From: Candidatus Heimdallarchaeota archaeon
Lineage (GTDB): Archaea > Asgardarchaeota > Heimdallarchaeia > JABLTI01
Direction of reading: 5' to 3'
Length of the DNA stretch: 64,000 bases
NCBI GenBank assembly: GCA_019056785.1
Contig: DXJV01000073.1
Coordinates: 39,957-103,956 of the forward strand
Shown here: positions 36,378 to 54,159 of the stretch, in pieces
How positions within the stretch are numbered: position 1 is the stretch's first letter
How the letters are laid out: each line of letters begins with the position of its first letter
The notes under the pieces: model-generated
What the model was told of the DNA's origin: nothing
The model's database searches: none
What the model saw: only the letters and a program-made list of their open reading frames with translations
Program-made: the position numbers and the translations under genes

Positions 36378-37712
36378 CTAATTTGATGTTATTTTTACTT
36401 CTATTCCTTCTTTCACTAAACGAGTAAAAAACAATTTCTCTACTACCGATTCTTTAATGGTCCGTCCAAAAGTAATGAAGAGTGTATCTTTATAACTTGC
36501 AACGGCACAACCCGTTTTCGTCACAGGGCTCGGTGCCGGGATAAAATCAACTTCTTGGACAAAGTCACTTACCGGCTCTGGTAAAACTATCCGCCCCAGA
36601 TTGGTTATGACTCCTGAATAGAGATATTCTCCCAATCGATTATAAATGACCTTTCCAAACAATCGCTTAAGGATTAAGGGGGTCATTCGAAGGAGTGGAT
36701 TAAGCTCTCCTCTCACGTTTCTCGCAACCCATTGATTAATGAATTTATCACAAATCTCTACGCGCATATAATGATAAACTTGGTTAACAATTTCTTCGAA
36801 AGAATGCTTGCCTAACCGCGGGTCGATTTCTGGTGTAACATAGAGGGAAAAGTTTCGCATTGTCTTAGAGGGATATATTCGTCGAAGATTGACCGGTACT
36901 TGAAGCCGTATTGGCCGAAGGTGCTTTTGGCGCAGTTTTTTAGGGAGGGCAAAAACGATTTCCTGTAAAGAATCCAAATAAATAGCTATAAGGTATTCAG
37001 TAAGTGTAAGGTTAAGGGCTTTTGCTTTTGTTAAGACTTTTTTCACAGGCATTTTTCCTTGAATAACATGGTAGATTCCTTTTGGTTCGAGTTTATAGGG
37101 CAGGTGGAAAGCTTTCGATGGGCTTTTTGCTGAAGGAATGGCTTTCTGATAATTACGCTTAAAAGCATCTTCATACTCTTCAGGATCAACTTTTTCTGTT
37201 GCTTTAAATACATCCAGCCAATCCCTTGGTTCGTAACCTTTAAGGCGGAAATATTCTACCACCAATGCTTTAAGGAATGTTAGCCCTCCGGTGCCATCTG
37301 TAATGCTATGATGAAATTCTACTGCAATGCGATTTTTATATGCTCGAACACGAAAGGGGAATACACCTTTCTTTGTAATCGGCAATTTCTGGCAGGGGTA
37401 TTGTTGTTCCACTTCTACTTTTGGCGTTGCAAGATTTTGTTCCCAATAAAACCAAAATAATCCTGGTCGGAGATTGACATTGTAATACGGAAAACGCTTT
37501 ATAATATTTTCAAGTGCTTGTTGTAATTGTTGGATATTTATTGCTTCGTTAAGAGTAAATGCAAGCCGAAACATACAAGGAATGCGCGCGGATGTCACCA
37601 GTGAAAAAACAGTCGCAGCATTATCTAATCGAAACCAATCTAGTGTTTCTTTATCGCTTTGCTGTCGCGCGCTTTTTCTTTTCTGAGGAGTATCATTAGA
37701 TCGTCTGTACAT
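36378..37712 (-). CDS. CoA-dependent acyltransferase (alcohol acetyltransferase/condensation-domain fold)
   Basis: WFRLDNAA, HHSITDG (HxxxD), PVNLRRIYPS.T.RNF, TNLG. Confidence 0.88.
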   Translation of the reverse strand: MYRRSNDTPQKRKSARQQSDKETLDWFRLDNAATVFSLVTSARIPCMFRLAFTLNEAINIQQLQQALENIIKRFPYYNVNLRPGLFWFYWEQNLATPKVEVEQQYPCQKLPITKKGVFPFRVRAYKNRIAVEFHHSITDGTGGLTFLKALVVEYFRLKGYEPRDWLDVFKATEKVDPEEYEDAFKRNYQKAIPSAKSPSKAFHLPYKLEPKGIYHVIQGKMPVKKVLTKAKALNLTLTEYLIAIYLDSLQEIVFALPKKLRQKHLRPIRLQVPVNLRRIYPSKTMRNFSLYVTPEIDPRLGKHSFEEIVNQVYHYMRVEICDKFINQWVARNVRGELNPLLRMTPLILKRLFGKVIYNRLGEYLYSGVITNLGRIVLPEPVSDFVQEVDFIPAPSPVTKTGCAVASYKDTLFITFGRTIKESVVEKLFFTRLVKEGIEVKITSN

Positions 37713-37816
37713 TAGTTTTAACCTTGAACCAAATAAATTGTAGTTATTCTTTTAGCTTGTTTTTAATATATCTATTATTTATTATTACATTCAATTTTTG
37801 AGTATTTTAAATGAAA

Positions 37817-38662
37817 TTATAAAATGTTCTTTTTCATTGCAGTTATTACAGACAAGAGTGCCGTATAGGAATCAAGTCGCCGTTCTAAAGGTAATGCAAC
37901 TAAAGTTTTCTTCTGTATCTTCTGGAAGCTGACATTGGGTTCATAGAGAACATCATAAAGCACCAGCCCTTCCGGAGGAGCTGGTTTTATCCCTCCAGGT
38001 AAAAGAGGGATTTCGGGGTCTAATAATTCGTCAATAATGTTCATTGAAAGGTCTTCGGCACCAATTTGTAATACTAATGAAACCATTTTTCGCACCTGAT
38101 ACCATAGAAAACTTCGTGAAGCAAATTCGAATTCCAAAACAGCATTTTTTTTGTGATGGGTAACTTTGGCGGTTTCCAACGTCAACACAGTAGACTTTTG
38201 ATAGCCACTCGGCAGAGGATCTGGTTTTTTACAGAGCTTCTTAAAATCATGGGTGCCTTTTAGGCGCTTTAATGCTTCAGTAAGCAGACCAATGTTTTCG
38301 TTTTTATAACGGCAAAAATACCGATAAATGCGCAGAATGGCATCTCTTCGTGCATTGAATATGGAGGGGACTTGAGAAATCCCCCAAGCAAAGATATCAT
38401 CTGGGAGGTTGGCATTAAGTTCTTCAAGGCAAAACTTGTCACGAACGGCATCAAAAGCGATCACTTGACCAAGAGCATTTACCCCTTGATCCGTTCGACC
38501 AGCAGCAGAATATCGCGCCGAACGTATGTTGTCGATTATTTTTTGTTGTAATAAAGTTTCGAGAATTGTTCCTTCCACGGTCTGGATGCCTTCTTTTTGC
38601 CTTTGGAAACCGTGGTAATTTTGCCCAAGATAAGCGATTTTTATTGCAAACCTTTTTTTCAT
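37817..38662 (-). CDS. truA: tRNA pseudouridine(38-40) synthase
   Basis: IAYLG.NYHGFQRQ, AGRTDQGVNA, GTHDF, FLWYQVR, APPEGL. Start MKKRF at 38662. Confidence 0.95.
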   Translation of the reverse strand: MKKRFAIKIAYLGQNYHGFQRQKEGIQTVEGTILETLLQQKIIDNIRSARYSAAGRTDQGVNALGQVIAFDAVRDKFCLEELNANLPDDIFAWGISQVPSIFNARRDAILRIYRYFCRYKNENIGLLTEALKRLKGTHDFKKLCKKPDPLPSGYQKSTVLTLETAKVTHHKKNAVLEFEFASRSFLWYQVRKMVSLVLQIGAEDLSMNIIDELLDPEIPLLPGGIKPAPPEGLVLYDVLYEPNVSFQKIQKKTLVALPLERRLDSYTALLSVITAMKKNIL

Positions 38663-38687
38663 GCCTTCCTTTTTACTCTCATAAACT

Positions 38688-38909
38688 AAAAAGATTTGTA
38701 CCCACGAGTGCAGGTTAAGATACCGTATCCCACTCCTCAGCAATGGGTTGTGCGACAGCAAGATCAGAGCATGCTTTTTAGCCGATGTTGCATACAGTGT
38801 TTATTGCTGCATTGCTGACGAAGATATAATGGGTTGCAGATGGACAAACCCCGGAAGACGCGATTACTCTATTCTGAATTCTGCCCTTAGCCATACAAGC
38901 AAATCCCCC
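38688..38909 (-). ncRNA. Candidate structured non-coding RNA (~220 nt), family unrecognised
   Basis: Nested stems GGGGGAUUUG/CAAAUCUUUU, UAAGG/UCUUA, GCAGA/UCUGC, CCCA/UGGG, CUUC/GGAG, UCAGCAAUG/CAUUGCUGA, CAGCAA/UUGCUG, GUAUGC/GCAUGC. G-U wobbles favour the minus strand. Ends in a U tract. Confidence 0.6.
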
Positions 38910-39267
38910 TTCATCTTGCAAAAAAATGCAGCCAATGAAAGCATTGATCATTACCCTGAGAAAAGAAGCAACGAAACAAAAACAGCAGGAATGGCTGGTT
39001 GGAAACTTTCGGCGAACTCCTTAAAAAAAAGGTTAAATACTTTATCAATAACTCCTTTTTTGAGAATAGCAGGTGCTCATTCAAAGCTCCCCACTAGCGA
39101 GGAGAGAAAGGCATCGTTCATGTGCCAATACCCATGGATATAAAACCTTTTCAGGAAAAAAAAGACAAGATACAGAATAAATCTCCTACAAATAAGTGAA
39201 AGATATAAATGGTGGTAAGGAAAAGAAAAAATACCCCCAGTTAGAAAAACGCGGTTGCCAGAGTAAA

Positions 39268-39669
39268 ATGGTAAATCTTCGAACTGAAACCATCAGATGT
39301 ATATTGTGCAATCATGAGATTGATTATTCCTCACAAAAAAAAGAGGAGTTATATATCTGTGCAGAATGTCAGGCATATTTCTGCCAAAAATGTCGAGAAG
39401 CAGTTAGGGGCTATGAATCATGCCCGGCCGCACGCTTATTAGGGGTAAAAGAACATAAATTAAAATTCATCAAACTCCTCCCGCCAAAAGTGCTTCTTTC
39501 CCCGATGAACGGAGCAACAGTCCCAGTTAGCAGGGAAGAAAAGACAAATCAAAAAGCAAGGGTGAAAATCCTTTCGGAACCATCTGTGAAAATCATCGAC
39601 AAAGATGACAACAACAAAAAGAGTAGCTCCAAAGGGAAAGCTCGGAAAAAGAACACAAAACGGCAGTGA
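39268..39669 (+). CDS. Zinc-finger protein with basic tail
   Basis: CILC...CAEC...FCQKC...CP...H. Confidence 0.72.
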   Translation: MVNLRTETIRCILCNHEIDYSSQKKEELYICAECQAYFCQKCREAVRGYESCPAARLLGVKEHKLKFIKLLPPKVLLSPMNGATVPVSREEKTNQKARVKILSEPSVKIIDKDDNNKKSSSKGKARKKNTKRQ

Positions 39670-39679
39670 AAATGTAGCA

Positions 39680-41404
39680 ATGCTTTTAAGACCATTTCTT
39701 GTTATAAGCGCGACAAGTCAGCAACCATTAACCGCTGCAAACATAATAACGAATGGGCAAACATTGCGTATTTTAATCATTCCGGAAGAGGGAGACGAAG
39801 AGATAGAGGAACAGCTGCAAGTGGTAATCTACAATCCGATTGATGCACCGGTTGTCGTTGGGAAAGTTCCGACACTTAAAACTGAGACGATTGCCTCTTT
39901 TAATGTTCAAATTCCAGAAAACTGGATAGCAGGAAATTATCGCCTTGTTCTCATGAAAAAAGCGAGCGGCGAAATTGTAAAGAGTAATTTTTTTACTATG
40001 AAAGCCACCACCCCACTGGGAAAACACCTCACAGAGCGGATACTTTCTCCCCACTGGCAGATAAACTATAAAGTTCAGATAAGTAATCCAACAGATAAAC
40101 CAGTCGGAAACTTTTCCGCTTTTGTAGCCTTACCAATAACAATCCCACCACATCAAATTGTTAAACGATTGACCGTTTCCCCAGAAACAGTGCGACTTTC
40201 CTCAGATGTAGAAGGAAACCACTGGGCCCATTATGAGGTGACGCGTATAGCTCCCGGGCAGACTCTTGAGTTACGCTATAGTGCGGTTATTCAAAGAAAA
40301 CCATTTTTGATGGCACCCACCCTTGAAAACGTGAAACAGGTAGCAAATCCATATGCCAAAACGTTTCTTAAACCATATCTTGCATCAGAAGCCCATATCG
40401 AAAGTACGCACCCACGAATTATCGAGCTGGCAAAAAACATTGTAACAGACCATCCGATAAAATTTGCAAAACGAGCAATACAAATAGTGAATCAAATTTT
40501 AAGGTATGAAATTCAACCGGAAGAATATGGAGCTGCATATGCAGTTGAAACAGGGAGGGGGGACTGCACAGAATTTGCCGCACTCTTTGTCGCTCTTTGT
40601 AGAGCAAAAGGGATCCCCGCACGTGTTGTTGCCGGATTTGGAATGGGACAGCGATGGGAGCGACATGCAATGGCAGAAATTCTTGTGGGGGGACGGTGGT
40701 TGCCAGTAGATGTTACAGGACAACAAGGAACCCATCCTTCTCTTGGTTTACAAACTAACATAATCACTCTTACCCGTGGAAATTGGATGGGGGGGACACT
40801 CGCAAAAGAAATTTCTTATCGATACCAAATCCTGGAACCAAGGCAAAAATTAGCAATTGGGGTGGATTGGAAAATAACCTTAAAAAAGAGCAGGGCAGAT
40901 CCGCTTTCAAAGGAAAACATGAAAAGCTCGGTCCGGGTTTTATCTTCGCGCTCGCCAGCATTAGTGGAAACAAAAGTGAAAATCGTAAGAGAGACCCTTG
41001 GAGAAGAGCGATTAATGCAGCTTAAAACCAAATCCACAGATAAGCCGGTGAAAATGGACCAAAACATCAAGATCTCTTTGAGAGCCACGCGAAAAAAAGG
41101 GCTCTTTATTCTCCCTACCTTACCCGACGTCATAAAAACCGTTGCTTTGAAAAAGAAGCGACTTATTATTCAAAACAAAACTGACCGGGTGCAAAGAGGG
41201 TGCCTTGAAATCCACGAGCGGGACAATTTTGGGGTGATACGTTTACTAAGCATCCGGGGGCTGCTCTTAGAGCCGGAAAGTGAACGGCAGGTGCAGCTAG
41301 GACTCACGTCTGCACGGAAAGGGCTGGTAACATTACAATTCCTATTCATAAACCGTATAGGGCGAGTACTCGCAAAAGAAGAAAGGACCATTAGTTTGTT
41401 TTAG
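39680..41404 (+). CDS. Transglutaminase-like domain protein with flanking beta-sandwich-like domains
   Basis: GDCTEFAALFVALCRAKGIPARVVAG, HAMAE, WLPVD (Cys-His-Asp triad). Confidence 0.88.
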   Translation: MLLRPFLVISATSQQPLTAANIITNGQTLRILIIPEEGDEEIEEQLQVVIYNPIDAPVVVGKVPTLKTETIASFNVQIPENWIAGNYRLVLMKKASGEIVKSNFFTMKATTPLGKHLTERILSPHWQINYKVQISNPTDKPVGNFSAFVALPITIPPHQIVKRLTVSPETVRLSSDVEGNHWAHYEVTRIAPGQTLELRYSAVIQRKPFLMAPTLENVKQVANPYAKTFLKPYLASEAHIESTHPRIIELAKNIVTDHPIKFAKRAIQIVNQILRYEIQPEEYGAAYAVETGRGDCTEFAALFVALCRAKGIPARVVAGFGMGQRWERHAMAEILVGGRWLPVDVTGQQGTHPSLGLQTNIITLTRGNWMGGTLAKEISYRYQILEPRQKLAIGVDWKITLKKSRADPLSKENMKSSVRVLSSRSPALVETKVKIVRETLGEERLMQLKTKSTDKPVKMDQNIKISLRATRKKGLFILPTLPDVIKTVALKKKRLIIQNKTDRVQRGCLEIHERDNFGVIRLLSIRGLLLEPESERQVQLGLTSARKGLVTLQFLFINRIGRVLAKEERTISLF

Positions 41405-41536
41405 GGAACCAAAGCAAGGGAAAAAAGTCCCTTTTCATGAACAAAAGGGAGAGAATGCGAACCTGTGAAGCGAGAAAAAATTGTCAATAAGAGCAAAAGT
41501 ACATTTTTATACTAAAGACATCTTTTACTACTTATT

Positions 41537-43387
41537 ATGTTGTTTGTTGTCTTTTCTCTAATCATCGGTTTAATTTTCGGTGTACTTGCAGGAGGCATTG
41601 TCCTCCTTAACAAGAGAAAATTTACACCAGCAGTCGGCATTATAGCCGCGGCGGGATTGGTCGGCGGCTTTCTCATCTCATTAACCCTGTTCTGGTTTGG
41701 TATCCCGGTACTAGGGTCAATCATTCTTATCTGTCTTTTATTGGGTGGCATTCTTGTACTGGTACTTTCACGCCTCTATCATCGGAGCTTTGCGCGAGTA
41801 GGGCGAAATGCCCAGGGCATAATTTCATTGGCAATAGCCGGATTAATGCTGTTTGGCTCAGCCTATTTCGGCCTTAGTACAATCATCTGGAAAGGATATG
41901 ACACTGCGAAATACTTTGATAGTATCCTCATGTTTCCTGATGAGAAGATGCCTTTCAATCACATCATTACTGGAGATAACGTGCGGGTAGTGGACAGTGA
42001 CTTGGCTGCAGAAATAATCCAGAAATCACAGCCGTTTGGCAGTAATTCCATGATCCTTGAGTTGCATGTCGGGAAACTATATGGAAAACTAATGTGGATT
42101 GGTGTTATGGGTACGGATGCAATCCAAATTGGAACGGATAACGCAGGGCGGAAACGGAACTCGATCTTCGGCTTTGTGGGCGTCGACCTCACTGACCCTT
42201 CCCAGGCGGTGATAGTTGTCGAGCAACCGTTCAAAATAGGGAGTTATCTTGTCCGGCAAAAGCAATTGGAGCGGATCGTCTGGAAAATTAATCCCAATTA
42301 TCGCGTGGGTGACAACAGCTACTTTTCGATGAATGACGAGGGGGAAATGCGTCTTTTAGCCCCCTATTCTATTTCAACGAGCTTGACCGTCGAAAGCGGC
42401 CTTGGATTGACAACCTTCCTCGAAAAGGTTGGTGGTGTCCTGGAATTTAATGCACAGGGAACGCTCATAAAGGATTATCGCGATTTGAGTGAACTTCCAG
42501 ACTATGCACGCATTCAATGCTACCCTGAAAGTTGGTTAGAATATAATATAAACAAATGGGGGCGCCATCGTAAAGGAAATCACGAATTTGCCTATTGGTT
42601 CACAACAACAGAACAGCTGGGGATATCCTATTATGACGATGTGCGGGTAATCTATGATGCCAATACCCAGGAAACATCTCAGTATGTCATGCTCACCCAG
42701 CCGGAGTCGGAAAGTCAGCTCCTACGAGGGGCTATAAAGGCAAATGCGAGTGGCATCTATTTCTTCGATTGGGCCGACCTCGACCCTAAACCCATTGACA
42801 CTCAAAATGCCCTCTATCATAGCCGAACGGCAATCGATGTGGAAGTCGGTACGACAGAGCATAATTATCGACCGATCCTCCCGTTGCTCTTCCCCATTCA
42901 GATGCACTATAAAAACATGACAGATTATGCCTATGTGGTTCCCATTCAATTTGGGAGCATAAGATTCGGCGGCATTTGTATTACTAACCCGTTCGACCCA
43001 AGTGGGGTAGACACAATTGTCGAGTTAGCAGAGGCAACAGACACCGTGGATGAGGTGTTGACGCGAGCAATAGATGAGTATCTGACATTTATGGGGATAA
43101 CACAACCGGTAGAAGATAATTACACGGAAACCCTTGAAATAGCACAACTGGCATCGTTTGAACAAGATGGAAATACTATCATCTTGGCACAAGGAAATCT
43201 GACATATATCCCCGAAGGAAACACCACAGCAATAAGTAGAAATGAAACAGTCTGGTTCACACAACAGTTCTTAAATGTCACTCAATGGGAAATAGCCCTC
43301 TTTCTCCAAGTCGGCGATACCCTCGAGTTAAACATTATAATCATCAATGAAATCATTTATTGCCAAGAGATCATCTCGGTAAATTAA
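41537..43387 (+). CDS. Hypothetical membrane protein (4 TM plus large extracytoplasmic domain)
   Basis: 616-aa ORF, hydrophobic N-terminus, many NxS/T sequons near the C-terminus. Confidence 0.75.
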   Translation: MLFVVFSLIIGLIFGVLAGGIVLLNKRKFTPAVGIIAAAGLVGGFLISLTLFWFGIPVLGSIILICLLLGGILVLVLSRLYHRSFARVGRNAQGIISLAIAGLMLFGSAYFGLSTIIWKGYDTAKYFDSILMFPDEKMPFNHIITGDNVRVVDSDLAAEIIQKSQPFGSNSMILELHVGKLYGKLMWIGVMGTDAIQIGTDNAGRKRNSIFGFVGVDLTDPSQAVIVVEQPFKIGSYLVRQKQLERIVWKINPNYRVGDNSYFSMNDEGEMRLLAPYSISTSLTVESGLGLTTFLEKVGGVLEFNAQGTLIKDYRDLSELPDYARIQCYPESWLEYNINKWGRHRKGNHEFAYWFTTTEQLGISYYDDVRVIYDANTQETSQYVMLTQPESESQLLRGAIKANASGIYFFDWADLDPKPIDTQNALYHSRTAIDVEVGTTEHNYRPILPLLFPIQMHYKNMTDYAYVVPIQFGSIRFGGICITNPFDPSGVDTIVELAEATDTVDEVLTRAIDEYLTFMGITQPVEDNYTETLEIAQLASFEQDGNTIILAQGNLTYIPEGNTTAISRNETVWFTQQFLNVTQWEIALFLQVGDTLELNIIIINEIIYCQEIISVN

Positions 43388-43468
43388 GACAAGAAAAAAA
43401 AACAATCCCGAAGACTTTCGGGATCTCTCCTTTTTTTTAAAAACTTTATTTGAGCACAATTGCGCAAA

Positions 43469-44860
43469 TTAAGCACTTTTTGCTGCGCGGGCTTTTTTCC
43501 GTTCAATCTTACGAACAATGGCGTCAGCAGCAATAACAATGGGGTAAATTGTTTCGGAAACGGCAGGAGCATAACAAAAGTCAAGGGTTAAAAGGTCATA
43601 AACTGTAAGGCCGGTTTGAAGTGCAAAGGCAATGTAATTCACATTCTCATCAACTTTTTCTTCGCCGAAAACTTCGCCCCCGAGTAATTTCCCATCACTA
43701 GAGCGGGCAATAAGTTTGATAGTAATAGGCTTTGTTGTCGGCATATAATGTGGTCGGATTGGCGCGGTAATTTTTGCTTGGGTTGTTTCGATTCCTTGCT
43801 TTTTGGCTTGTTCAGTATTTATCCCGGCAACCCCCACATAAAAATTCCGTGAAGAAACTATAAAGGAATTAACACTGCCAGGATAGCGTGTGTCCCCACC
43901 TGCAGCATTGATACCAGCAATACGGCCCTGACGGACGGCCGGCCCAGCTAAAAGCACAAGGCTTCGTTCCTTTGTAACTAAATTGGTAACAGAGACACAG
44001 TCACCTGCAGCATAAATAGCTTCATCAGAAGTCTGCATTTTTTCATTAACTTCAATCGCCTTGAAGTTCTCAACAAGCTTCAACCCACTCTTTTGAGCCA
44101 ATTGGGCATTTGGTCGCACCCCGGTTGCCAGGACAACAACATCAGCAGCAAGAGTCTCGAGTTTGTCCTCCGTGCCAATCGTTATGTGCTCCACTTTTTC
44201 TGTCCCGAGAATTTCCTTGACCATCATACCGGTGCGAACGATAATACCCGTTTCCTCAAGACGTTTTTGTGCCAACAAGGCAATATCCTTTGAAATCTTC
44301 AGTGGCATTAATTGTGGGAACATTTCTACAATGGTGACCTCTTTGCCCAGGTGTCTAACTTCTGTAGCAACTTCGATACCAATAGCACTCCCACCAACAA
44401 CAATGACATTTTTAATGCTCTCTGCTGAGACAACTTCCTTAATGGCTTGGGCATCTTCCGCAAACTTCAGGCGAAAAACATTCTTGAGATCGCGCCCTGG
44501 AATGGGTGGGACGAAAACGTTTGAGCCGGTGCAAAGAATTAATTTGTCATAGGGGAGCGTGCTTTTTGAGCCATCGTCGTTGTTCACGACTGTGACCACT
44601 TTTTTCTTCCGGTCAATTGCGTCTGCAACAGTATTTAAGAGAAGCGTGATGTTCATTCGCTCAAAATTGAGGTCCTCAATAATTGTCTCGATTGACGGAA
44701 GATACCCGCCAATGACAAACGGGAGGGCACAAGGATGATAAGTATCGTATTTTTTCGAATCAACAACAGTGATTTCTGCTGTTCGATCTGTTAAGCGCGC
44801 GGTACTGGCGGCAGTGAGCCCCGCAGGACCATTTCCAATTATAACAATTTTTTGTGGCAT
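43469..44860 (-). CDS. NADH oxidase / CoA-disulfide reductase family flavoprotein
   Basis: GNGPAG, YHPCALP (redox Cys), GGSAIG.E, IYAAGDC, YAPAVS. Confidence 0.93.
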   Translation of the reverse strand: MPQKIVIIGNGPAGLTAASTARLTDRTAEITVVDSKKYDTYHPCALPFVIGGYLPSIETIIEDLNFERMNITLLLNTVADAIDRKKKVVTVVNNDDGSKSTLPYDKLILCTGSNVFVPPIPGRDLKNVFRLKFAEDAQAIKEVVSAESIKNVIVVGGSAIGIEVATEVRHLGKEVTIVEMFPQLMPLKISKDIALLAQKRLEETGIIVRTGMMVKEILGTEKVEHITIGTEDKLETLAADVVVLATGVRPNAQLAQKSGLKLVENFKAIEVNEKMQTSDEAIYAAGDCVSVTNLVTKERSLVLLAGPAVRQGRIAGINAAGGDTRYPGSVNSFIVSSRNFYVGVAGINTEQAKKQGIETTQAKITAPIRPHYMPTTKPITIKLIARSSDGKLLGGEVFGEEKVDENVNYIAFALQTGLTVYDLLTLDFCYAPAVSETIYPIVIAADAIVRKIERKKARAAKSA

Positions 44861-44870
44861 ATTTGGCTGA

Positions 44871-44909
44871 CCTCTAGGCCGACTAGCAGAAGCTAGTTCA
44901 GCTGCGAGG
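44871..44909 (-). promoter_or_regulatory. Leader hairpin overlapping the Shine-Dalgarno-like GAGG of the NADH oxidase gene
   Basis: CCUC/GAGG, GCUG/CGGC, ACUAGC/GCUAGU with UUCU loop, 10 nt upstream of the ATG. Confidence 0.45.
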
Positions 44910-44981
44910 AATGACTAAATATGTGCTATTTAAAATTTTATAAAAGGCTTTGAATAACCGGCATAAAAAAACAGCTGGTGT

Positions 44982-45536
44982 TCATAATTCGAGCTGAAAC
45001 GCCATGTCCGCTGCATTCTGTACGGCCACGCTAAAACCCGGCTGGAAGCCAATAATCGCCGTATCAATGCCGTTTGCTTTGGCCGCTCGTAGAATCGGCG
45101 CACAACGAGCATGTCGGCTCGCTACAATAATCATATTGATGTTCTTGCTGAAAACGCAGTCTATTACTTCAATTGCCATACGAATGTAAATATCTCCAGA
45201 AGCAACAATTGGTTCATACCCACTGTTTTCAATGGCTTTTAAGAGCTTTTGTGGGGCATGGCGATTCAAAATAACTTTGGCAACTTTGATCTGACCAAGG
45301 CGGTCGGCGATTTTTTCGATGTCCTCTAAACGTATCTGGCGGTTGTTAATACGGCGAAGAAGGTTCGGGGCATCAATAATAAGGGCTACCTTGCGTTGCC
45401 TGGTGAAAATGTTCTTGACCATTTTGAAGCTGAGACCTTTTTGCCCACTTCGCTTTTCGTCATGGAGCGCTTCTTCAGGAAGACTACCTTCAATTTCCTC
45501 TGGACGCATACTGTTTTCGGTATTTTCGTCGACCAC
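44982..45536 (-). CDS. NYN-domain protein (TIGR00288-like)
   Basis: ALIIDAPNLL, GDIYIRMAIE, IIVASRHA, GFQPGFS.A..NAAD. Several acidic residues are substituted. Confidence 0.8.
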   Translation of the reverse strand: MVDENTENSMRPEEIEGSLPEEALHDEKRSGQKGLSFKMVKNIFTRQRKVALIIDAPNLLRRINNRQIRLEDIEKIADRLGQIKVAKVILNRHAPQKLLKAIENSGYEPIVASGDIYIRMAIEVIDCVFSKNINMIIVASRHARCAPILRAAKANGIDTAIIGFQPGFSVAVQNAADMAFQLEL

Positions 45537-45923
45537 GTATCTTTACCTCACTGTAATACAACAAATTCGGTCTTAATAATTTATTTGTGGATATTATTTT
45601 CACTCACAAAGGCTAAGCATAAGAACCCCCCCCTCAACCAGAAATAATAGGAAGGGGGTTTCAGCACAATGGCACATAGGTGCTTCTTTTTTTTCTCCAA
45701 AGACGAAAGGAGAAAGAAGGGGTCTGGGGGTTGCCACTAATCACTTACCGGCCAATTCTTTTTCTTCATGCTTTGCCTTTTTTTCAACCAAAAAATTATT
45801 TTAGCTCCATAGAGAACAATGTTTGAGGTTGTTTTCTCCCTCCATTACAAAGAAAATTCAAGTTGTTGGAATGGGAAAACTTCCTCATTGGAGAGAATAA
45901 AGATTTAATTGCAAGTGAGCATC

Positions 45924-46880
45924 ATGGCGACAACTATTCTTATTACAGGCGGTTGCGGCTTTATTGGAAGTAATTTAGTTAATCGATTAGTAGCAACAGG
46001 CGCGAACATCCTTGCCCTTGATGACCTGACGGCAGGAAACCGAGCGTTTATTGACCAAGCGCTCAAGAAACCAAATTGTCAGTTCATCAAAGGAAGCATA
46101 ACAGATTTCCCGTTGCTTACAAAGACACTACGCGATGTAGATGTGGTGCTTCATGAGGCAGCACGACCGGATGTTCGAGCGAGTACTGCCAATCTATTCT
46201 CAGACTTTGCGGTGAATGTGCAAGGAACAGTGAATCTCCTGGAAGCGATGATAAAAAATGACGTTCCAAAGATCTTGTTTGCGTCATCGTGTGGTACGGT
46301 CTATGGGGAATCAGCGGTCCTGCCAACGCCAGAAGATGTCCCGCTCGCACCGATTAGTCATTATGGCGCCTCCAAAGCAGCTTCTGAGATGTATCTGTCC
46401 AGTTTTGCCAACCTTTATGGCTTAGAAGCCTACGCTTTACGGCTGGGGAATATTTATGGCCCACCATCCAATCATGGTGTCATGCACGACTTTTACTGGA
46501 AATTGAAGAAGGATCCTACTACACTCGAGATATTGGGGAATGGTGAGCAACTAAAGTCCTATCTGTTCGTGGAGGACTGTGTCAACGCTCATCTTAAGGC
46601 TCTCGAGACAAAAATTCAAGGCTATCTGCCGATTAATATTGCCTCCATAGAAGGGACAACAGTGAACACCATCGCAAAAGAAGTAATCGCGGCAATGGGG
46701 TTAAAGGAGGTTCGCTTGACCTATACCGGCGGGGAACGAGGTTGGGCAGGTGACGTGCGAAAAGCCGTGCCGGATATTTCAAGGGCAAAAGAAGTGCTCC
46801 ACTGGGAGCCAACAACTGCACTTTCGACAGGCATTAAAAAATACATTCAATGGTTGGAACAGAGCAAGAAGACAGATTAA
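45924..46880 (+). CDS. NAD-dependent epimerase/dehydratase (UDP-glucose 4-epimerase-like)
   Basis: ITGGCGFIGS, YGASK, NIYGP. Confidence 0.93.
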   Translation: MATTILITGGCGFIGSNLVNRLVATGANILALDDLTAGNRAFIDQALKKPNCQFIKGSITDFPLLTKTLRDVDVVLHEAARPDVRASTANLFSDFAVNVQGTVNLLEAMIKNDVPKILFASSCGTVYGESAVLPTPEDVPLAPISHYGASKAASEMYLSSFANLYGLEAYALRLGNIYGPPSNHGVMHDFYWKLKKDPTTLEILGNGEQLKSYLFVEDCVNAHLKALETKIQGYLPINIASIEGTTVNTIAKEVIAAMGLKEVRLTYTGGERGWAGDVRKAVPDISRAKEVLHWEPTTALSTGIKKYIQWLEQSKKTD

Positions 46881-47554
46881 GTGGTGCTCTCCTGGGAGGG
46901 GAGCGCAACAAGTTCTGTTAGAAAACGAATGTGCCGCCAAATGGTAATGCCATATTTTGCTTCATCCAACCGCTCTTCCCGAATGAGAATGAACCTGACC
47001 CCAGCGTTTGTTGCAGCAAGAGCATCTACCCAGGAATCACCAACAAAAACAGCCTGTTCCGGAGATAAGTTGAATTTTGTGAGGATCAGAGAAATTCCTT
47101 CAGGGTCAGGCTTCATTTTCTTGACATCTTCACGAGCAACAACAAGGTCGAAAAAGGACTCCAGGTGAAACCGCTGAAGTACCTCAAGAGTGGGACTTTT
47201 AGCATTATTAGTAAAGACAATAAGTAAAAAGCCCTTTTGCTTTAAAGCCGCAAGCGTCTCTGTTATGCCGTCTGCAACTGTAATGTCCCGCATCCCCTCC
47301 CGCTCGAAAGACTCAACAAGTGACCATAATTCTTCCGCCAGGGAGGTTCCATGCTCCTCGTCATAGGCAGCCGCTTGCTCGATGATTTCCCCAGCAGTGA
47401 ATTTGTGGGGGATGGTCTCATCGGAACCAAAACTAAAGCCATAACGAGAAAGGCGGTGAGCCATTTCAACTTTCAATTTAGGAAAGTCAATATGCGATTT
47501 TACCAGCGTGTTATCGAAATCAAAGATTATTGCTAAAGGCTGAGAGGAGGGCAT
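46877..47554 (-). CDS. HAD-family hydrolase
   Basis: FDFDNTL, FTNN, KPDP, VGDSWVD. Confidence 0.93.
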   Translation of the reverse strand: MPSSQPLAIIFDFDNTLVKSHIDFPKLKVEMAHRLSRYGFSFGSDETIPHKFTAGEIIEQAAAYDEEHGTSLAEELWSLVESFEREGMRDITVADGITETLAALKQKGFLLIVFTNNAKSPTLEVLQRFHLESFFDLVVAREDVKKMKPDPEGISLILTKFNLSPEQAVFVGDSWVDALAATNAGVRFILIREERLDEAKYGITIWRHIRFLTELVALPSQESTT

Positions 47555-47576
47555 AAGTGGTTTCTCCTGAAAATTA

Positions 47577-48830
47577 TTAGTCGGGGGGCTCTTCTTTCAA
47601 ATCCCTAGTATGAACCGCATACGCTGAAAGCTTAGTTCCCTGCGGAAGCGTCATTTTACTCCCAATAACACTCTTCGCCCCAATTAGTACTAGCTCTTCT
47701 AGTTGGGAGGGGGGGTCTAGCGGGGCACGGGCAGCATCGGCGGTGGGCGGTATTGGTGGGCCAATCTTTGTCTGAGCGCCTATCAACACTTCTTCCCCCG
47801 CAACAAGATTCCGAACGGTACAGCCGGCCTCAAGACGGCAGCCGTCAAGAAGAAGACAGTGGGCAAGCTTAACGCCTGCACCAAGCGTGCAATCTTTTCC
47901 CAGGAAAACAGCCGGCCCAAGAATCGCCCCAGGCTCAACAACGGTTCCTTTTCCGAGCAGCACAGGGCCGCGAATGGTAATGCTGGAAAATTCAATTGTA
48001 GTCTCCGCGTCGAAGAACAACTCATCCGCAGCTTTGAACCCTATCTCGCCGCCAGAATGGAATTGCATGCAGCGCAGCTCGTCTTCTACCGTAGCTTTGA
48101 AATAGCTTTGCGCTTTGAGTAAGTCCAACGGATTCTCAAGACTCATCCAAGCATCAATAATCGTTGCCCCTATTGGTCCTTCCTTCCCGAGAAGCGTAAT
48201 GGCATCTGTAAGCTCGTATTCTCCCCGTTCGGAGAGAGGGGTTTGGCGAATGGCATCGAAAATTGCCCGGTCGAACAGGTAAATGCCGGCATTAATGTAA
48301 CCACTCTCGGTAGCGATTGCTGCCAACTGCTGTTTCTCTTTAATACTCAGCACAGTCCCATCGGCGGCAAGCTGCAAAAGACCATAACGACTACCGGTTC
48401 CAGGGAAGACCGCCAGCACCGCCTTCGCATGTAAAGCGGTTTGCTGAACAAAGAGCCGCGGAAGCACTGCCGGAAGGTCGGCAAGAATGTCGCCATTCAA
48501 CACTAACAACTGGCGCTGGTCAGAAGCAACAAAAGGCTCCACCTGGGCAACTGCATCTGCTGTGCCCTTAGGAGGGTCCTGCACGGTGAACAACACATCG
48601 GCAGAAAAAGCCGTCGAAGCAAAAAGAGAACGCATGGCGGCTTCCTGCCAGGGGGTAATCACCAGCACTACCCGCGAAACAACACCACTGGACAACAACT
48701 GCTCCACTAGCCAGAGCAAGAGCGGCTTGTTGTGAAAGGGCAATGAACCTTTCAACCGAGTCTCAGTTAAGGGGCGCATGCGTTTCCCCCGACCGGCAGC
48801 AAGAATGGCGGCAATCATTATTAGTCTCAC
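47577..48830 (-). CDS. Sugar-phosphate nucleotidyltransferase with hexapeptide (LbH) domain, GlmU-like
   Basis: ILAAGRGKRMRPLT, GTADA, LNGD, SERGEYELTDAI, hexapeptide repeats. Confidence 0.9.
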   Translation of the reverse strand: MRLIMIAAILAAGRGKRMRPLTETRLKGSLPFHNKPLLLWLVEQLLSSGVVSRVVLVITPWQEAAMRSLFASTAFSADVLFTVQDPPKGTADAVAQVEPFVASDQRQLLVLNGDILADLPAVLPRLFVQQTALHAKAVLAVFPGTGSRYGLLQLAADGTVLSIKEKQQLAAIATESGYINAGIYLFDRAIFDAIRQTPLSERGEYELTDAITLLGKEGPIGATIIDAWMSLENPLDLLKAQSYFKATVEDELRCMQFHSGGEIGFKAADELFFDAETTIEFSSITIRGPVLLGKGTVVEPGAILGPAVFLGKDCTLGAGVKLAHCLLLDGCRLEAGCTVRNLVAGEEVLIGAQTKIGPPIPPTADAARAPLDPPSQLEELVLIGAKSVIGSKMTLPQGTKLSAYAVHTRDLKEEPPD

Positions 48831-49043
48831 TCAACGAATTCGAATGAAAGATAATCCTACCTAAGGCTAACAGCCGAAGGCTATTTTAAAGTTGCTTGCA
48901 GTTTCAGAAAAAGAAAGAACGAGCATTAAAGAAAGTCTGGGAAGAAGAAAAGGAAAGAGGAAAAAAAAGAGCGAATGAACGAACCATCTCGCTCGCACAG
49001 CAGGAAACAACGTGGAAAACGGCGCAGGCAGCGGCTGCCACGT

Positions 49044-49724
49044 CTAACTCTGCAACGCGATGAGCTGGAGCTGGGTGCGGATCCGGAGATATTCCTTAGC
49101 GAAGTCGACGGAAGAAATGTCAGCCCAGTGGAAGCGCTCCTCAATATCGAACAGCTCCTCCTCAAGGGAGAGCTTGCGCTTCTCGAGATATTCCTGCCGC
49201 TCCTTGGTGGGGTCAACACGACGACGACCACTGAGCGCAGCACGCATACGAGAAAGATCAGCCTCCTTCTGACGAAGGACCTCCTCAAGCTGCGCCTTCT
49301 GCCGGGTGAGAACCTCAAGAGCAGCATCAGGCTTGACCTTAGGGGCAGCACCGCGCTCAATAAGATGACGGGCAGGACGAAGAGGCTCACGAGCAAAAAG
49401 ACCCTTAAGACTGTTAGCAACCTGGAAAAGATGATACTGAGGATTCCAGCGCTTGAGAATCCACAAATCAACAACACCGCCACGACCAACACGAGGATGG
49501 TCAACCTCACTAATCATACGAACAAGAGGAGGAACAGCAGGAAAGCCGTCCAATAACTGAATCTCAACAGTAAAATACCGGTCTCGAAACTGACCGCGAC
49601 CAGGAATTAAACCACGCCAACGAGTGAGATCACCATTAAAAGGCTCGAAACCACGACCCTTCTCGAACATGAGACCGGCCTCGCGAGCGAGAATGACGTC
49701 AGGGATATTGATATTACTACTCAA
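49044..49724 (-). CDS. UEV-domain protein, Vps23/TSG101-like ESCRT-I subunit
   Basis: UBC fold (W.GLIPG, FPAVPP.V, HPRV..GG.VDL with catalytic Cys replaced by Asp, W.P), coiled coil, C-terminal ISSVDFAKEYLRIR steadiness-box-like hairpin. Confidence 0.82.
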   Translation of the reverse strand: MSSNINIPDVILAREAGLMFEKGRGFEPFNGDLTRWRGLIPGRGQFRDRYFTVEIQLLDGFPAVPPLVRMISEVDHPRVGRGGVVDLWILKRWNPQYHLFQVANSLKGLFAREPLRPARHLIERGAAPKVKPDAALEVLTRQKAQLEEVLRQKEADLSRMRAALSGRRRVDPTKERQEYLEKRKLSLEEELFDIEERFHWADISSVDFAKEYLRIRTQLQLIALQS

Positions 49725-50206
49725 TTTTTTTCAACTCTTTCGAATTTTCTTATTGGTTCTTCTCTTTCTATGTCTTTTTTCTTCCCATTCCTCGAGTTAG
49801 TTGCGCTCTCCTGGGTTTTCTTCCTCATGAAAGAGAGGGGCTGCTTTTCAGCATCCTTAGCGGGTTTGTCCCTCAGGGCTTTTCCTCGCCGATGCTTGTT
49901 CTTCTCAATTGATAATGCCACTTCCTCCTTATTATTTATTACTAAATTGCCATTAATAAAGTAATTAATCGCCAGGTTGACCATTAGCAGCAGGTGGTTT
50001 CTCAAGTTGTTTCTCTTGTAGTCCATTGCTTCCATTATTCTTGCCAGCTCTTTCGAGTGGGAGATGTAGTGGTAGAGCCTGTAGGCGGAGCCCTGTCGTT
50101 CCTCGATGTCTTTCTGTAGCCTTTCGAAATCTATCTTACCGTTTTCGTAATCGTAGCGGGCAATTGCTTTCTGTGATTTTTCTGGTTCAGCCACTCTGCC
50201 ACCCAT
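49721..50206 (-). CDS. Hypothetical protein; stop overlaps start of the Vps23-like gene
   Basis: GGAGG-type SD before ATG 50206; TTGA overlap at 49721-49724. Confidence 0.5.
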   Translation of the reverse strand: MGGRVAEPEKSQKAIARYDYENGKIDFERLQKDIEERQGSAYRLYHYISHSKELARIMEAMDYKRNNLRNHLLLMVNLAINYFINGNLVINNKEEVALSIEKNKHRRGKALRDKPAKDAEKQPLSFMRKKTQESATNSRNGKKKDIEREEPIRKFERVEKN

Positions 50207-50380
50207 ACACCCCTCCCTCCCAATCCCGGATCTCGCAAAATACCACGCTGCTATGGTGCATAGCAAAATGAATTTTAACAGATTGTTATAGATTTATAGA
50301 TTAATAAATTTAAGAGCGGTAGGAACATCTATCAGACTTATTTTTCCCCGAATAGTCAAAAACTCACAAATTTACATTTT

Positions 50381-51172
50381 TCATTCATATTTTAATTTTC
50401 CATATTCTTTAGTTCCAATTTTATCTTTATATTTGTTCATGGCTTTTTTCATGATTTTGAAGAACATCCAATTAAATAAGTGCCCCAATAAACGATTAAA
50501 CGGATTTGTTTTACATTTATAATAATAAAGTTGATCTAACCATCCTCTTTCATTCCAATATTCATAATCATTTGGGAACACGGTTTTTGCAAGTACCTTT
50601 TTAGTCTGAAATTGGATAATTTGATTTAAAGTAACTTTATGTTCTTTTGGATTTTGAAATAGACTCTTTATAAATTTCGAAAGAACTTTCTTATTTTTTT
50701 TCATATTTGTCGTTCTTTTGCTTGCCCAAATATTCCCAACAAAATGCGCACCCCAATTGATACCAACTATTTTTAGATATTTCAAAGTAATATTTAGACC
50801 GGAACTCGATGTTGTTGTGACTCCAAGATAGGGTTTGGCTGTCAAAATAGGGCTGTGGGCCCATTTTGCTGTTTTATCGATAAACATTTTCATTTTTCCG
50901 GTGACATTGTTATTATAAACAGGAGATGCAATGATAATTCCGTCGCTTTTTTTCATTTTATCCCTAATCTCAATCATATCATCTTTTATGATGCAACCAG
51001 TCCCTAACACACAATTTTCACACCCTTTACAATCTTTTATGTCCTTTTCGCTAAGAATAACTACTTCTAATCCAATTTCATTTTCATTAAGTTTCGTTTC
51101 AAGGAATTTAAGGAGGTTATGAGTATTTCCATCCTTTTTTCCTCCCAAAATGGCGACGACTTGTTTTTTCAT
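50381..51172 (-). CDS. Flavodoxin-like iron-sulfur flavoprotein / NAD(P)H-dependent FMN reductase
   Basis: GNT, CKGCENC.....C, DDM, ASPVY, MKMFID. Visibly more AT-rich than neighbours. Confidence 0.9.
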   Translation of the reverse strand: MKKQVVAILGGKKDGNTHNLLKFLETKLNENEIGLEVVILSEKDIKDCKGCENCVLGTGCIIKDDMIEIRDKMKKSDGIIIASPVYNNNVTGKMKMFIDKTAKWAHSPILTAKPYLGVTTTSSSGLNITLKYLKIVGINWGAHFVGNIWASKRTTNMKKNKKVLSKFIKSLFQNPKEHKVTLNQIIQFQTKKVLAKTVFPNDYEYWNERGWLDQLYYYKCKTNPFNRLLGHLFNWMFFKIMKKAMNKYKDKIGTKEYGKLKYE

Positions 51173-51333
51173 AATTTTCTACTCCTTAATTTACTCTCAA
51201 TTACAAATAATTTACCGGTTGAATTAATCTTACTTTAGTTTTTAAGAATTTGTTGCTTTCTCTATTCGCAGTTGTTTTTCTTCCCCTTATCGCAACGTGG
51301 TTTTTATACTCTCGAGGCAAAGTACTTTGTATT

Positions 51334-52944
51334 ATGGCGAATGGACCTGTGCTCACCTGGCGGTGTGACCCACTCTTGTATGACCCACAAGCCGTTTCCG
51401 CTGACGCTTGGCTCACAGCAAACAAACTGATCGAGCAAGGACAATTAGAGCGCATTTTCTATGACCCGGCCGCACTCAAACTCGAGCTTTATCCCATTCT
51501 CGTCCGAAAAGTGGATTTTCTCCGGGAGCGGCAGAGCGACCGTATTCTTGCTCGCTTCCCGTTCAAAGTGCTAACTGAGGACGAAATTGCCGCCATTAAC
51601 GACCGGCTCCTTTCGCTGGCAGAGCAAGTTCATCATTATTTCTACCGCTCAATAGATTTCTCCATTCGCTCCTGGCGCGAGAAACTACGCCATTACCTTG
51701 AGCGGGGGGCATTACCATTCCCTCTTCTACGTTGCCTCTGGAAAATCAACCCTGAGCTTGTCCATTACCCACAGGACTCTGTTATCTTTGAAAGTGCGCG
51801 AGGAAAACGGTATACCATCCCTTGTAAAATAACCAAACAGTTAGTCTATCTCTGTGGTGTTGTAAATGGTGATGGGCATCTCCGGACGCATTGGTTACGG
51901 ATTGTTGATGAAACAAAAGAGCATATCCAATTTCTCTCCCAATTATTTATGCAATTGTTCAGCGATGGCGGTGTTATATTCCAAAGTGGAAACGCGTGGA
52001 ATGTTGAAATCCGTTCCTCACAAGCTGTTCGGTTATTTCACTTTCTCACGGATCAAACCATTAATGGCGCAAAATATGGCTCTTTGAGGGAACCCGTCTT
52101 TTTTCAACTTTTAGACCAACCATATCGCTCACTTTATTGGCGGGGCGTGATGGATGCAGACGGTTCCTATAAAAATCAAATCTCGTTTGGAAGCGCAAGC
52201 AAACGCTATATCTCGGACTTCCAGTTATTTTTGCGTTCTGTAGGCATTAAGAGTTCAATTACGACTATGAAGACAGGGACGTTTCTCTTGCAAATTCCAC
52301 TTGACTTTAAACTCCCATTTGCAAGACAGATTGGTGTACACAATCCGAAAAAGAAAAGGGATCTTAAAAACCTTCTCAATAAGAAATCACTTATCTTTAA
52401 TGGTCTAAGAGAGGAACATATCACGCGAGAAGGTTACTTTGACCTGAGCAAATTAACACCGTTATATGTGCTCGGTCTCGAAGCCTATCTAAAGGCTTAT
52501 CGAAAACCACTCTCCTACGCTGCAGTCGAGCGAAAATTGGGATTGAGTTCCGGACAATATTATCATTACGAACATGGAACAAGAGCTCTCCCGTTTCCAC
52601 TACTCTTCAAATTGTTTGACCTCAAAGAGCCAAATACGCTTATGAAGAAGCTTGTCGCCTTGCCGGGGAAGCTCCTCTTTCGCGCCTCAACATCTAAACC
52701 ACACCCCTTACCCTTGAAACCTACACAAGAGCTACTCTTTGTTATGAGTCATCTTTTACCTTTGACTAATTGGACGCGCATTCTTCAACCAACAAAACAA
52801 TTATACCAGGCAATTGAAAGGCTTTTTGAGGTGGAACCCGTAAAAAAGCATATTAGGGATAAATTATTGTTGCGCTTTTTACAAACGTTTGGTGACTATA
52901 GGAAAATAGAAATAGGGATATTTCGAAATTTAATAAGCTATTAA
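51334..52944 (+). CDS. Free-standing LAGLIDADG endonuclease-like protein with HTH domain(s)
   Basis: LVYLCGVVNGDG (51841-51876), LYWRGVMDADG (52132-52164), XRE-like HTH LSYAAVERKLGLSSGQYYHYEHGTR. Confidence 0.82.
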   Translation: MANGPVLTWRCDPLLYDPQAVSADAWLTANKLIEQGQLERIFYDPAALKLELYPILVRKVDFLRERQSDRILARFPFKVLTEDEIAAINDRLLSLAEQVHHYFYRSIDFSIRSWREKLRHYLERGALPFPLLRCLWKINPELVHYPQDSVIFESARGKRYTIPCKITKQLVYLCGVVNGDGHLRTHWLRIVDETKEHIQFLSQLFMQLFSDGGVIFQSGNAWNVEIRSSQAVRLFHFLTDQTINGAKYGSLREPVFFQLLDQPYRSLYWRGVMDADGSYKNQISFGSASKRYISDFQLFLRSVGIKSSITTMKTGTFLLQIPLDFKLPFARQIGVHNPKKKRDLKNLLNKKSLIFNGLREEHITREGYFDLSKLTPLYVLGLEAYLKAYRKPLSYAAVERKLGLSSGQYYHYEHGTRALPFPLLFKLFDLKEPNTLMKKLVALPGKLLFRASTSKPHPLPLKPTQELLFVMSHLLPLTNWTRILQPTKQLYQAIERLFEVEPVKKHIRDKLLLRFLQTFGDYRKIEIGIFRNLISY

Positions 52945-54082: not shown

Positions 54083-54159
54083 TGGTGGACCGGGCGGAAT
54101 TTGAATCCGCGGCCATCTGACTGCGAATCAGACGATCTTCCAGGCTGATCTACCGGCCC
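54083..54159 (-). tRNA. tRNA-Ala(CGC), encoded CCA
   Basis: GGGCCGG/CCGGTCC with G3:U70, TCTGA-TT-CGC-AG-TCAGA anticodon arm, TTCAAAT T-loop. Confidence 0.96.

Follow-up and report, generated by a model that had tools for sequence, protein, structure and literature searches.

An adenine-poor stretch of DNA that peaks in a gene for an E2 variant (UEV type, Vps23-like architecture; 49044-49724, minus strand) was analysed in a window of 64,000 nt, which corresponds to positions 39957-103956 of contig C47 in the genome of a Heimdall-group Asgard archaeon (2.87 Mb in 102 contigs, 82.5% complete, 38.6% GC). The adenine loss at the UEV locus is real, and skew of this kind attaches to the DNA strand over a whole region rather than to genes, transcripts or codons. 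We tentatively regard the A-poor stretch as the strong arm of a skew focus, that is, a site-anchored and strand-polar mutational footprint that would stem from repeated starts of DNA synthesis or from strand exposure, and we consider this reading plausible to a degree that stops a little short of probable.

Only five of the 226 codons of the UEV gene end in A (CGA once, TTA and GAA twice each), and the fraction of codons ending in A (A3) is thus 0.022 (binomial P = 5e-30), the lowest among 2390 open reading frames (ORFs) of at least 100 aa, for which the genome mean is 0.316 (sd 0.066). This recount agrees with the initial annotation, which had listed five A-ending codons and neither AAA nor CAA: lysine is encoded by AAG over AAA at 11:0, glutamine by CAG over CAA at 11:0 and glutamate by GAG over GAA at 18:2. 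The base fractions at four-fold degenerate sites (A4, C4, G4 and T4) were 0.01, 0.28, 0.07 and 0.64, respectively, leaving at these sites only codons that are read by GNN anticodons, and A occupied 0.05 of the two-fold purine sites as compared to about 0.7 genome-wide. Moreover, arginine is specified by CGN codons only, and the protein contains 27 Arg vs. 11 Lys, compared to about 20 Arg vs. 18 Lys in the orthologues. The A:G ratio was reduced 20-40 fold and the four-fold purines were replaced by pyrimidines, while T:C was unchanged. GC at four-fold sites was not raised (0.35 vs. 0.36), and GC-biased conversion was rejected on this ground.

Orthologues of the UEV gene were found in ten congeners (65-73% identity) with the same downstream synteny, which allowed the comparison of codon usage and substitutions proposed by the initial annotation. 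The orthologues have an A3 of 0.28-0.38 and carry A at 0.60-0.80 of their two-fold purine sites, and their four-fold sites show an A4 of 0.14-0.31, with the closest relative at 0.14, and a T4 of 0.52-0.68. In the codon alignment, ancestral four-fold A was never retained and gave way to T in 114, to C in 29 and to G in 11 cases; of 184 comparisons at two-fold sites, 178 showed A changed to G. This species alone has a strong UEV focus; a complete absence of the focus from its relatives, the view that we had considered, had to be softened since the orthologues are T-rich at four-fold sites, and judged from these sequences a weak version of the focus may be old.

The product of the gene matches the Pfam family UQ_con (E 2e-13) and, weakly, the UEV profile, and its residues 25-120 match E2 and UEV structures in the PDB. 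By our own reading against the E2 active-site motif, HPR is followed by GGVVDLWIL in place of the catalytic Cys. The protein is thus an E2 fold lacking the catalytic Cys and extended by a coiled-coil tail, making the original Vps23-like label a fair one. Two long spurious ORFs overlap the gene at 48926-49556 (194 aa on the minus strand and 193 aa on the plus strand) since stop codons are missing both from a strand poor in A and from its T-poor complement; on contig C65 the same effect gave rise to a spurious ORF of 138 aa on the strand opposite TFS.

The skew step is centred at 49705-49725, at the UEV start codon (TTG, 49724), which overlaps the stop of the upstream ORF. Cumulative A-T peaks at position 89661 of the contig, equal to position 49705 of the window, and A3 drops from 0.53 over the final 30 codons of the upstream ORF to 0.00 over the 30 codons that open the UEV gene. 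In 600-nt windows the plus-strand AT skew was +0.33 to the left and -0.31 to the right, a step of 0.64 that ranks ninth among the 13 foci described below. The polarity flip had initially been placed at an AT-rich patch (49925-49970), but A is already scarce on the plus strand from 49725 onwards, and the patch falls inside the remnant of an HD-domain coding sequence.

To the left, the depletion continues through an intergenic spacer of 213 nt (48831-49043; minus-strand A 0.15, C 0.25, G 0.19, T 0.41), as compared to A/C/G/T fractions of 0.33/0.17/0.17/0.33 in non-ORF DNA genome-wide. It then fades inside a gene for a nucleotidyltransferase with hexapeptide repeats (47577-48830, minus strand; Pfam NTP_transferase, 1e-31), where A3 is 0.07-0.13 over codons 31-180 and 0.17-0.23 beyond, thus confirming the leftward fading first noticed in this gene, and its tail reaches a HAD hydrolase gene (46877-47554, minus strand; Pfam HAD_2, 3.5e-31) with an A3 of 0.19 and an A4 of 0.15. 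A weak outer left arm (37000-46880) was seen in the gene-by-gene profile of the contig at 77-86 kb, in which genes of both orientations have a plus-strand four-fold AT skew of +0.19 to +0.30, and the arm changes sign after about 12 kb. Independence of gene orientation is shown for the class of foci as a whole and is only weak in the window itself, where it concerns the plus-strand genes at 39-47 kb (+0.25 to +0.30).

A scan for sharp steps, performed in 600-nt windows and repeated in 1-kb windows, placed the number of sharp skew foci in the genome at 13 or more. The steps were strongly biased in polarity (13 vs. 3 in the 600-nt and 11 vs. 1 in the 1-kb windows), and the UEV locus shows the features of the class, with an A-rich to A-poor step when read 5'->3', a decay over kilobases and an affected spacer. 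Across 1826 genes, the plus-strand four-fold AT skew of neighbours correlated whatever their orientation (r 0.55 for same-strand, 0.48 for convergent and 0.54 for divergent pairs) and the correlation dropped to about 0.2 at 30-45 kb; expressed in coding-strand terms, opposite-strand neighbours were negatively correlated (r about -0.5). The genome-wide skew check suggested by the initial annotation hence yielded both a strand-wise correlation and one dominant polarity. Long one-signed domains also exist, such as 0-166 kb of contig C84 up to the focus at the EF-1alpha gene.

Single genes also show that the skew belongs to the strand. A 2-hydroxyacid dehydrogenase gene on contig C70 (Pfam, 1e-62) has an A4 of 0.70, G4 of 0.23, C4 of 0.07 and T4 of 0.00 and is flanked by A-poor genes on the opposite strand. 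Its composition is the exact complement of that of the UEV gene and of the EF-1alpha gene (A4 0.00, T4 0.72); the latter has the second lowest A3 (0.036), and the symmetry of its focus is clear (+1.00 vs. -0.95). In addition, the flip can occur inside a gene. A ppsA-like ORF changes at codon 796 from A3 0.51 and T3 (codons ending in T) 0.08 to 0.09 and 0.50, and other flips take place within a few codons, in a Ras-like GTPase gene at the DxxGQ motif and in the EF-1alpha gene at codon 21, just past the P-loop. Outside ORFs, the strand that leaves a centre shows A 0.19 and T 0.44 over the nearest 500 nt. The spacer, the mirror-image genes and the intragenic flips support the earlier suggestion of a local adenine-directed process that is independent of gene direction. 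A separate pair of genes on contig C58 (10136-12130), encoding an aminotransferase and a 2-hydroxyacid dehydrogenase, has an A4 of 0.00 in both, placing the dehydrogenase paralogues of C58 and C70 at opposite compositional extremes (A4 0.00 vs. T4 0.00).

When the 13 foci were pooled, A4 of the leaving strand near the centre was 0.08 in co-oriented genes (baseline 0.30) and 0.16-0.20 in opposite genes (baseline 0.34), and the baseline was regained about 3 kb away in the former and about 10 kb away in the latter; near the centre the pooled amplitude is somewhat inflated, as the foci were selected by their own skew. The starts of the EF-1alpha and EF-2 genes are also focus centres and two centres lie in tRNA genes, and no common motif was seen by eye in the 13 centre sequences. 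Strongly skewed genes were enriched near contig ends (46% vs. 16% within 2.5 kb, P = 7e-4). Moreover, contigs of two other metagenome-assembled genomes from the genus end at the ppsA centre, at codon 786 (end of G009:C24, 50407) and codon 803 (start of G002:C74), both within 10 codons of the skew centre at codon 796. The EF-1alpha and ppsA foci are present at the same codons in congeners in weaker form, and the present species is the extreme in amplitude, with an A4 of 0.00 in EF-1alpha compared to 0.13-0.36 in the congeners.

The only EF-1alpha gene detected in this genome carries an in-frame TGA (G000:C84:166667-166669, minus strand) at the Gly of the DTPGH motif (IIDTP*HRDF), which splits it into ORFs of 92 and 363 aa; congeners have an open frame of 459-524 aa. 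The TGA may have arisen by a G->T change on the strand that is depleted in purines, or may reflect recoding or an error in the consensus.

To the right of the centre lies a 181-aa ORF (49721-50266, minus strand), the 'mirror' arm of the skew. It has no Pfam match, and over residues 29-177 it resembles the C-terminal portion of proteins of about 350 aa that form a multicopy family, with 38-66% identity to full-length copies, identifying it as real coding sequence that is only a fragment, namely the decayed C-terminal remnant of a Cas5-like RAMP/HD nuclease gene. Full copies on contigs C65 and C49 follow a Cas7-like RAMP gene and carry the HD motif; the window copy lacks both Cas7 and the N-terminal half with HD. 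We take this family to be ARAMP (Asgard RAMP, an array-less Cas7/Cas5-HD system), a label that does not come from a family search of our own, and the 181-aa ORF is assigned to it by its Cas5-like RAMP/HD homology together with a 3' tail element (49725-49925, minus strand), which scores nhmmer E = 4e-55. The tail aligns with the three other copies in the genome (G000:C49:3117-3349, C65:71837-72070 and C80:70766-71010; nhmmer E 1e-47 to 1e-55) and contains a conserved hairpin core at about 49836-49866 (GATGCTG-AAAA-GCA(T/G)C), and the folding of the window tail was no better than that of shuffled sequences (z = -0.94). Exactly four tail copies exist in the genome, each adjoining a host gene, i.e., the UEV, EF-2 and ESCRT-III genes and the convergent end of TFS, and all four adjoin a skewed stretch, which at TFS is the antisense strand.

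The remnant is followed by an FMN-reductase gene (50381-51172, minus strand; Pfam FMN_red, 4.5e-24), which has a GC content of about 0.28-0.35 in a genome of 0.39 and a plus-strand four-fold AT skew of about 0. Situated between the ARAMP remnant and a LAGLIDADG gene, the gene probably represents a recent insertion interrupting the right arm. The LAGLIDADG-HTH protein gene (51250-52944, plus strand; Pfam LAGLIDADG_3, 5e-7, and weakly HTH_3) belongs to a family of about 560 aa with six paralogues by tblastn, the others being at G000:C88:59362-60951, C16:6220-9987 (two), C65:74373 to the contig end and C49:2-208. Each of the three ARAMP loci in the genome has one of these genes upstream, and two contigs break off within a family member. 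The genes past the remnant, i.e., the FMN-reductase and LAGLIDADG genes, show no skew, and ARAMP-HD genes in relatives have a coding-strand AT skew of +0.2 to +0.44 regardless of location, as does the window copy (T4 0.14). Since the skew of the remnant is typical of its family and the genes beyond it are unskewed, the right arm is weak evidence for a symmetric process; the A-poor plus strand to the right of the centre was indeed seen as first described, but as a mirror of the left arm it is weak, because ARAMP-family composition accounts for it.

Synteny with the genus is kept to the left of 49.72 kb and broken to the right. Upstream of the UEV gene, the relatives carry other DNA, in three different contexts, which makes 49.72 kb a genuine junction formed by rearrangement and insertion; in four of them the upstream neighbour is a homologue of the window gene at 60780-62120 in opposite orientation. 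In the congeners that were searched, the 1.5 kb before the UEV gene yielded no homologue of the 181-aa ORF. A second public assembly of this species (GCA_003662885.1) spans the junction and is 99.8% identical over 39042-50415. Half of the 22 differences between the two assemblies in these 11.4 kb, including both indels, fall into a 140-nt intergenic patch (45668-45806) between an NYN-domain gene and an epimerase gene, which forms a small hypervariable spot. Around the centre, inverted and direct repeats gave chance-level matches only (47000-52000), and Rfam and tRNA scans gave nothing at the centre, the nearest tRNAs being at 54083 and 60628.

If our preferred reading is correct, mutational pressure on the DNA would radiate outward from a fixed point at about 49705-49725, in the first UEV codons. 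The strand leaving this point 5'->3' sheds adenine where the protein permits, in favour of T or C at four-fold and G at two-fold sites, and also sheds guanine at four-fold sites; the effect passes through the spacer, has halved by about 1-1.5 kb and is near background by about 3 kb. DNA synthesis or strand exposure would begin repeatedly at the point, most likely because the DNA is nicked or broken site-specifically at a mobile-element junction and then repaired or resynthesised, and less likely as origin-like firing, and the leaving strand would be either the error-prone nascent strand or the strand that remains single-stranded longest. We favour nick- or break-primed resynthesis over origin firing because of the mobile-element junctions, the tRNA genes, the DNA encoding conserved motifs and the contig ends with which foci coincide.

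Two known systems resemble such a process. Strand-coordinated mutation clusters, mostly at cytosines, flank double-strand breaks and sites of break-induced replication in yeast and in cancers. Like the foci, these clusters are anchored to a point, extend over kilobases, switch strand preference and are associated with rearrangement junctions; however, they arise in a single cell lineage, whereas the foci represent an evolutionary equilibrium composition at adenine, with no break observed. In vertebrate mitochondrial DNA, a skew gradient is set by the time spent single-stranded in replication and fits C->T and A->G deamination. It shares with the foci a very strong four-fold skew that varies with distance from a fixed start, but at the foci T:C is unchanged and pyrimidines replace purines.

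Several observations weigh against our interpretation, in addition to the selection of the pooled foci mentioned above. The mechanism is one that we infer, as no nuclease site, DNA end or replication intermediate was observed, and the substitution pattern does not match simple damage of single-stranded DNA, since cytosine deamination would raise T:C. None of the differences between the two assemblies falls within 47.6-50.4 kb, which gives no hint of hypermutation being under way. The right arm consists of just the 0.55 kb of ARAMP remnant, whose composition is usual for its family. Where mobile DNA is concerned, nine of the 13 foci, including that at EF-1alpha, have no ARAMP, and ARAMP copies in relatives show no consistent flip. 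Finally, the strongly affected 2.8 kb of the window contain co-oriented genes only, possibly one transcription unit, and a transcription-anchored process at the UEV locus may fit this layout.

The alternative that follows from this last point is a transcription-associated asymmetry of mutation or repair, in which a very strong UEV promoter would expose the coding strand or leave it outside transcription-coupled repair and the effect would decay with read-through. In E. coli and mammals, transcription-associated asymmetry is known as an excess of T over A with loss of A on the non-transcribed strand and amounts to a few percent. The UEV zone resembles it in that the coding strand loses A from the gene start, fading downstream, with A->G at two-fold sites: the zone begins at the start of the gene, where a candidate TATA-like A/T-rich stretch can be read 19-30 nt upstream of the TTG, and decays over the UEV gene, the spacer and the next two co-oriented genes. 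Moreover, the centres at the EF-1alpha and EF-2 starts and in tRNA genes agree with this explanation, co-oriented genes are affected about twice as strongly as opposite ones, and the UEV orthologues have an EF-1alpha-like T-rich codon usage suggesting high expression. Known transcription asymmetry, however, follows the direction of genes and scales with expression. Ten ribosomal-protein genes in one operon (C49, 31-39 kb), normally among the most transcribed, are spared with a normal A3 of 0.29-0.37, which together with the UEV gene being the lowest of all ORFs also speaks against low A3 being common or expression-linked, the outcome that the initial annotation had named as damaging to its claim. 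In addition, genes on the opposite strand are fully affected, as seen for the dehydrogenase gene with a T4 of 0.00, flips occur inside single transcripts, and polarity does not follow gene direction, given the plus-strand correlations of 0.48-0.54 and the coding-strand correlation of about -0.5 between opposite-strand neighbours. We therefore consider transcription an unlikely cause of the skew.

Replication from an origin or initiation zone at about 49.72 kb, one of many such origins as in eukaryotes and with leading strands that are T-rich and A-poor in the outward direction, appears rather unlikely. Skew jumps are known at replication origins, both at bacterial oriC and at the borders of the human skew 'N-domains', and like the foci they are abrupt changes of sign at a point, with the same polarity on both strands when read 5'->3', with gene orientation being irrelevant and with one sign far outnumbering the other. 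The jump at the UEV locus has the polarity of an origin, as do nearly all strong jumps in this genome; the skew is independent of gene orientation, remains correlated over 30-45 kb and forms the long one-signed domains mentioned above, and a weaker long-range skew is present in a closed genome of the sister family. In contrast to known origin jumps, the foci are extreme in amplitude (A about 0 at free sites), they have neither an initiator gene nor origin repeats, their centres lie inside conserved ORFs, and more than 13 occur in less than 3 Mb. Their amplitude declines to background in 1-3 kb, whereas fork polarity beside an efficient origin should reach much further, and the left arm at the UEV locus reverses after about 12 kb. 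An Orc1/Cdc6 gene was recognised on other contigs (Cdc6_C on C76 and weakly on C3) and not on C47 in this 82.5% complete genome, the cdc6 locus on C76 has neither focus nor flip on a contig of just 14 kb, and neither ORB-like (origin recognition box) repeats in 47-52 kb nor a shared centre motif were found. The initial annotation was thus right about the missing cdc6 and ORB, but the origin that it proposed was not demonstrated: the strong skew decays within 1-3 kb and does not fill a replichore, while weak long-range domains do exist in the genome. A variant in which the foci would be dozens of fixed replication starts, eukaryote-like and without Orc1-adjacent origins, with the strength of the UEV focus having arisen with the ARAMP insertion, seems quite unlikely.

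We regard it as very unlikely that the footprint was caused by ARAMP, by which a type III-derived Cas7/Cas5-HD system with its tail RNA would bind the neighbouring DNA or transcript, its HD nuclease would nick the displaced coding strand again and again, and resynthesis would then erode adenine. The position of all four tail copies directly before a skewed stretch is in favour of such a role, as are the searched congeners, which lack both a homologue of the 181-aa ORF upstream of the UEV gene and strong depletion. However, insertion may simply occur before highly expressed genes, the window copy is fragmentary and its tail does not fold better than shuffled sequences, and most of the strongest foci have no tail. 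With four tail copies for at least 13 foci, and with no consistent downstream flip at the copies of relatives, ARAMP as a general cause was rejected.

Synonymous-site selection on the UEV gene, i.e., translational optimisation or avoidance of A in the mRNA, is highly improbable and largely refuted. It would agree with an effect that is strongest at third positions and alike in EF-1alpha, and with the four-fold codons left being only those read by GNN anticodons, but the ribosomal-protein genes and the orthologues are normal, the spacer is affected, the effect stops in the middle of the next gene, and mirror-image genes and intragenic flips exist elsewhere. An assembly chimera or horizontally acquired DNA joined at 49.72 kb can practically be dismissed, for although synteny breaks exactly there and GC falls to 0.30 in the gene to the right, the A-depleted UEV, nucleotidyltransferase and HAD genes are syntenic orthologues of the genus, the second assembly spans the junction and an inverted duplication is not present; the junction that the initial annotation had envisaged is hence real and accounts for the right arm, but not for the adenine loss of the syntenic left arm. 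Diversity-generating retroelements likewise cause adenine to be lost or changed, but they were rejected here because the proposed search for a reverse transcriptase gave no RVT_1 match in the genome, no template and variable repeat pair was present, and the affected zone spans kilobases and is invariant between the assemblies.

To our knowledge, no known rule of replication, transcription or codon usage explains the skew foci. A full-text literature search gave no description of such foci in Asgard archaea, with origins being mentioned for a virus only (PMC8813620). The skew zones have practical consequences for genome analysis, as they undermine the inference of expression and horizontal transfer from codon usage, create long spurious ORFs on both strands and coincide with assembly breaks.

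Strand asymmetry is the main clue to replication, transcription and repair that can be obtained from sequence in uncultured microbes, and we know of no cultured member of this genus. The asymmetry described here reaches saturation, is tied to single points and not to genes, and can change the codon usage partway through an ORF. If the foci are repeated starts of DNA synthesis or breaks, they would show where such sites lie in archaea closely related to eukaryotes.

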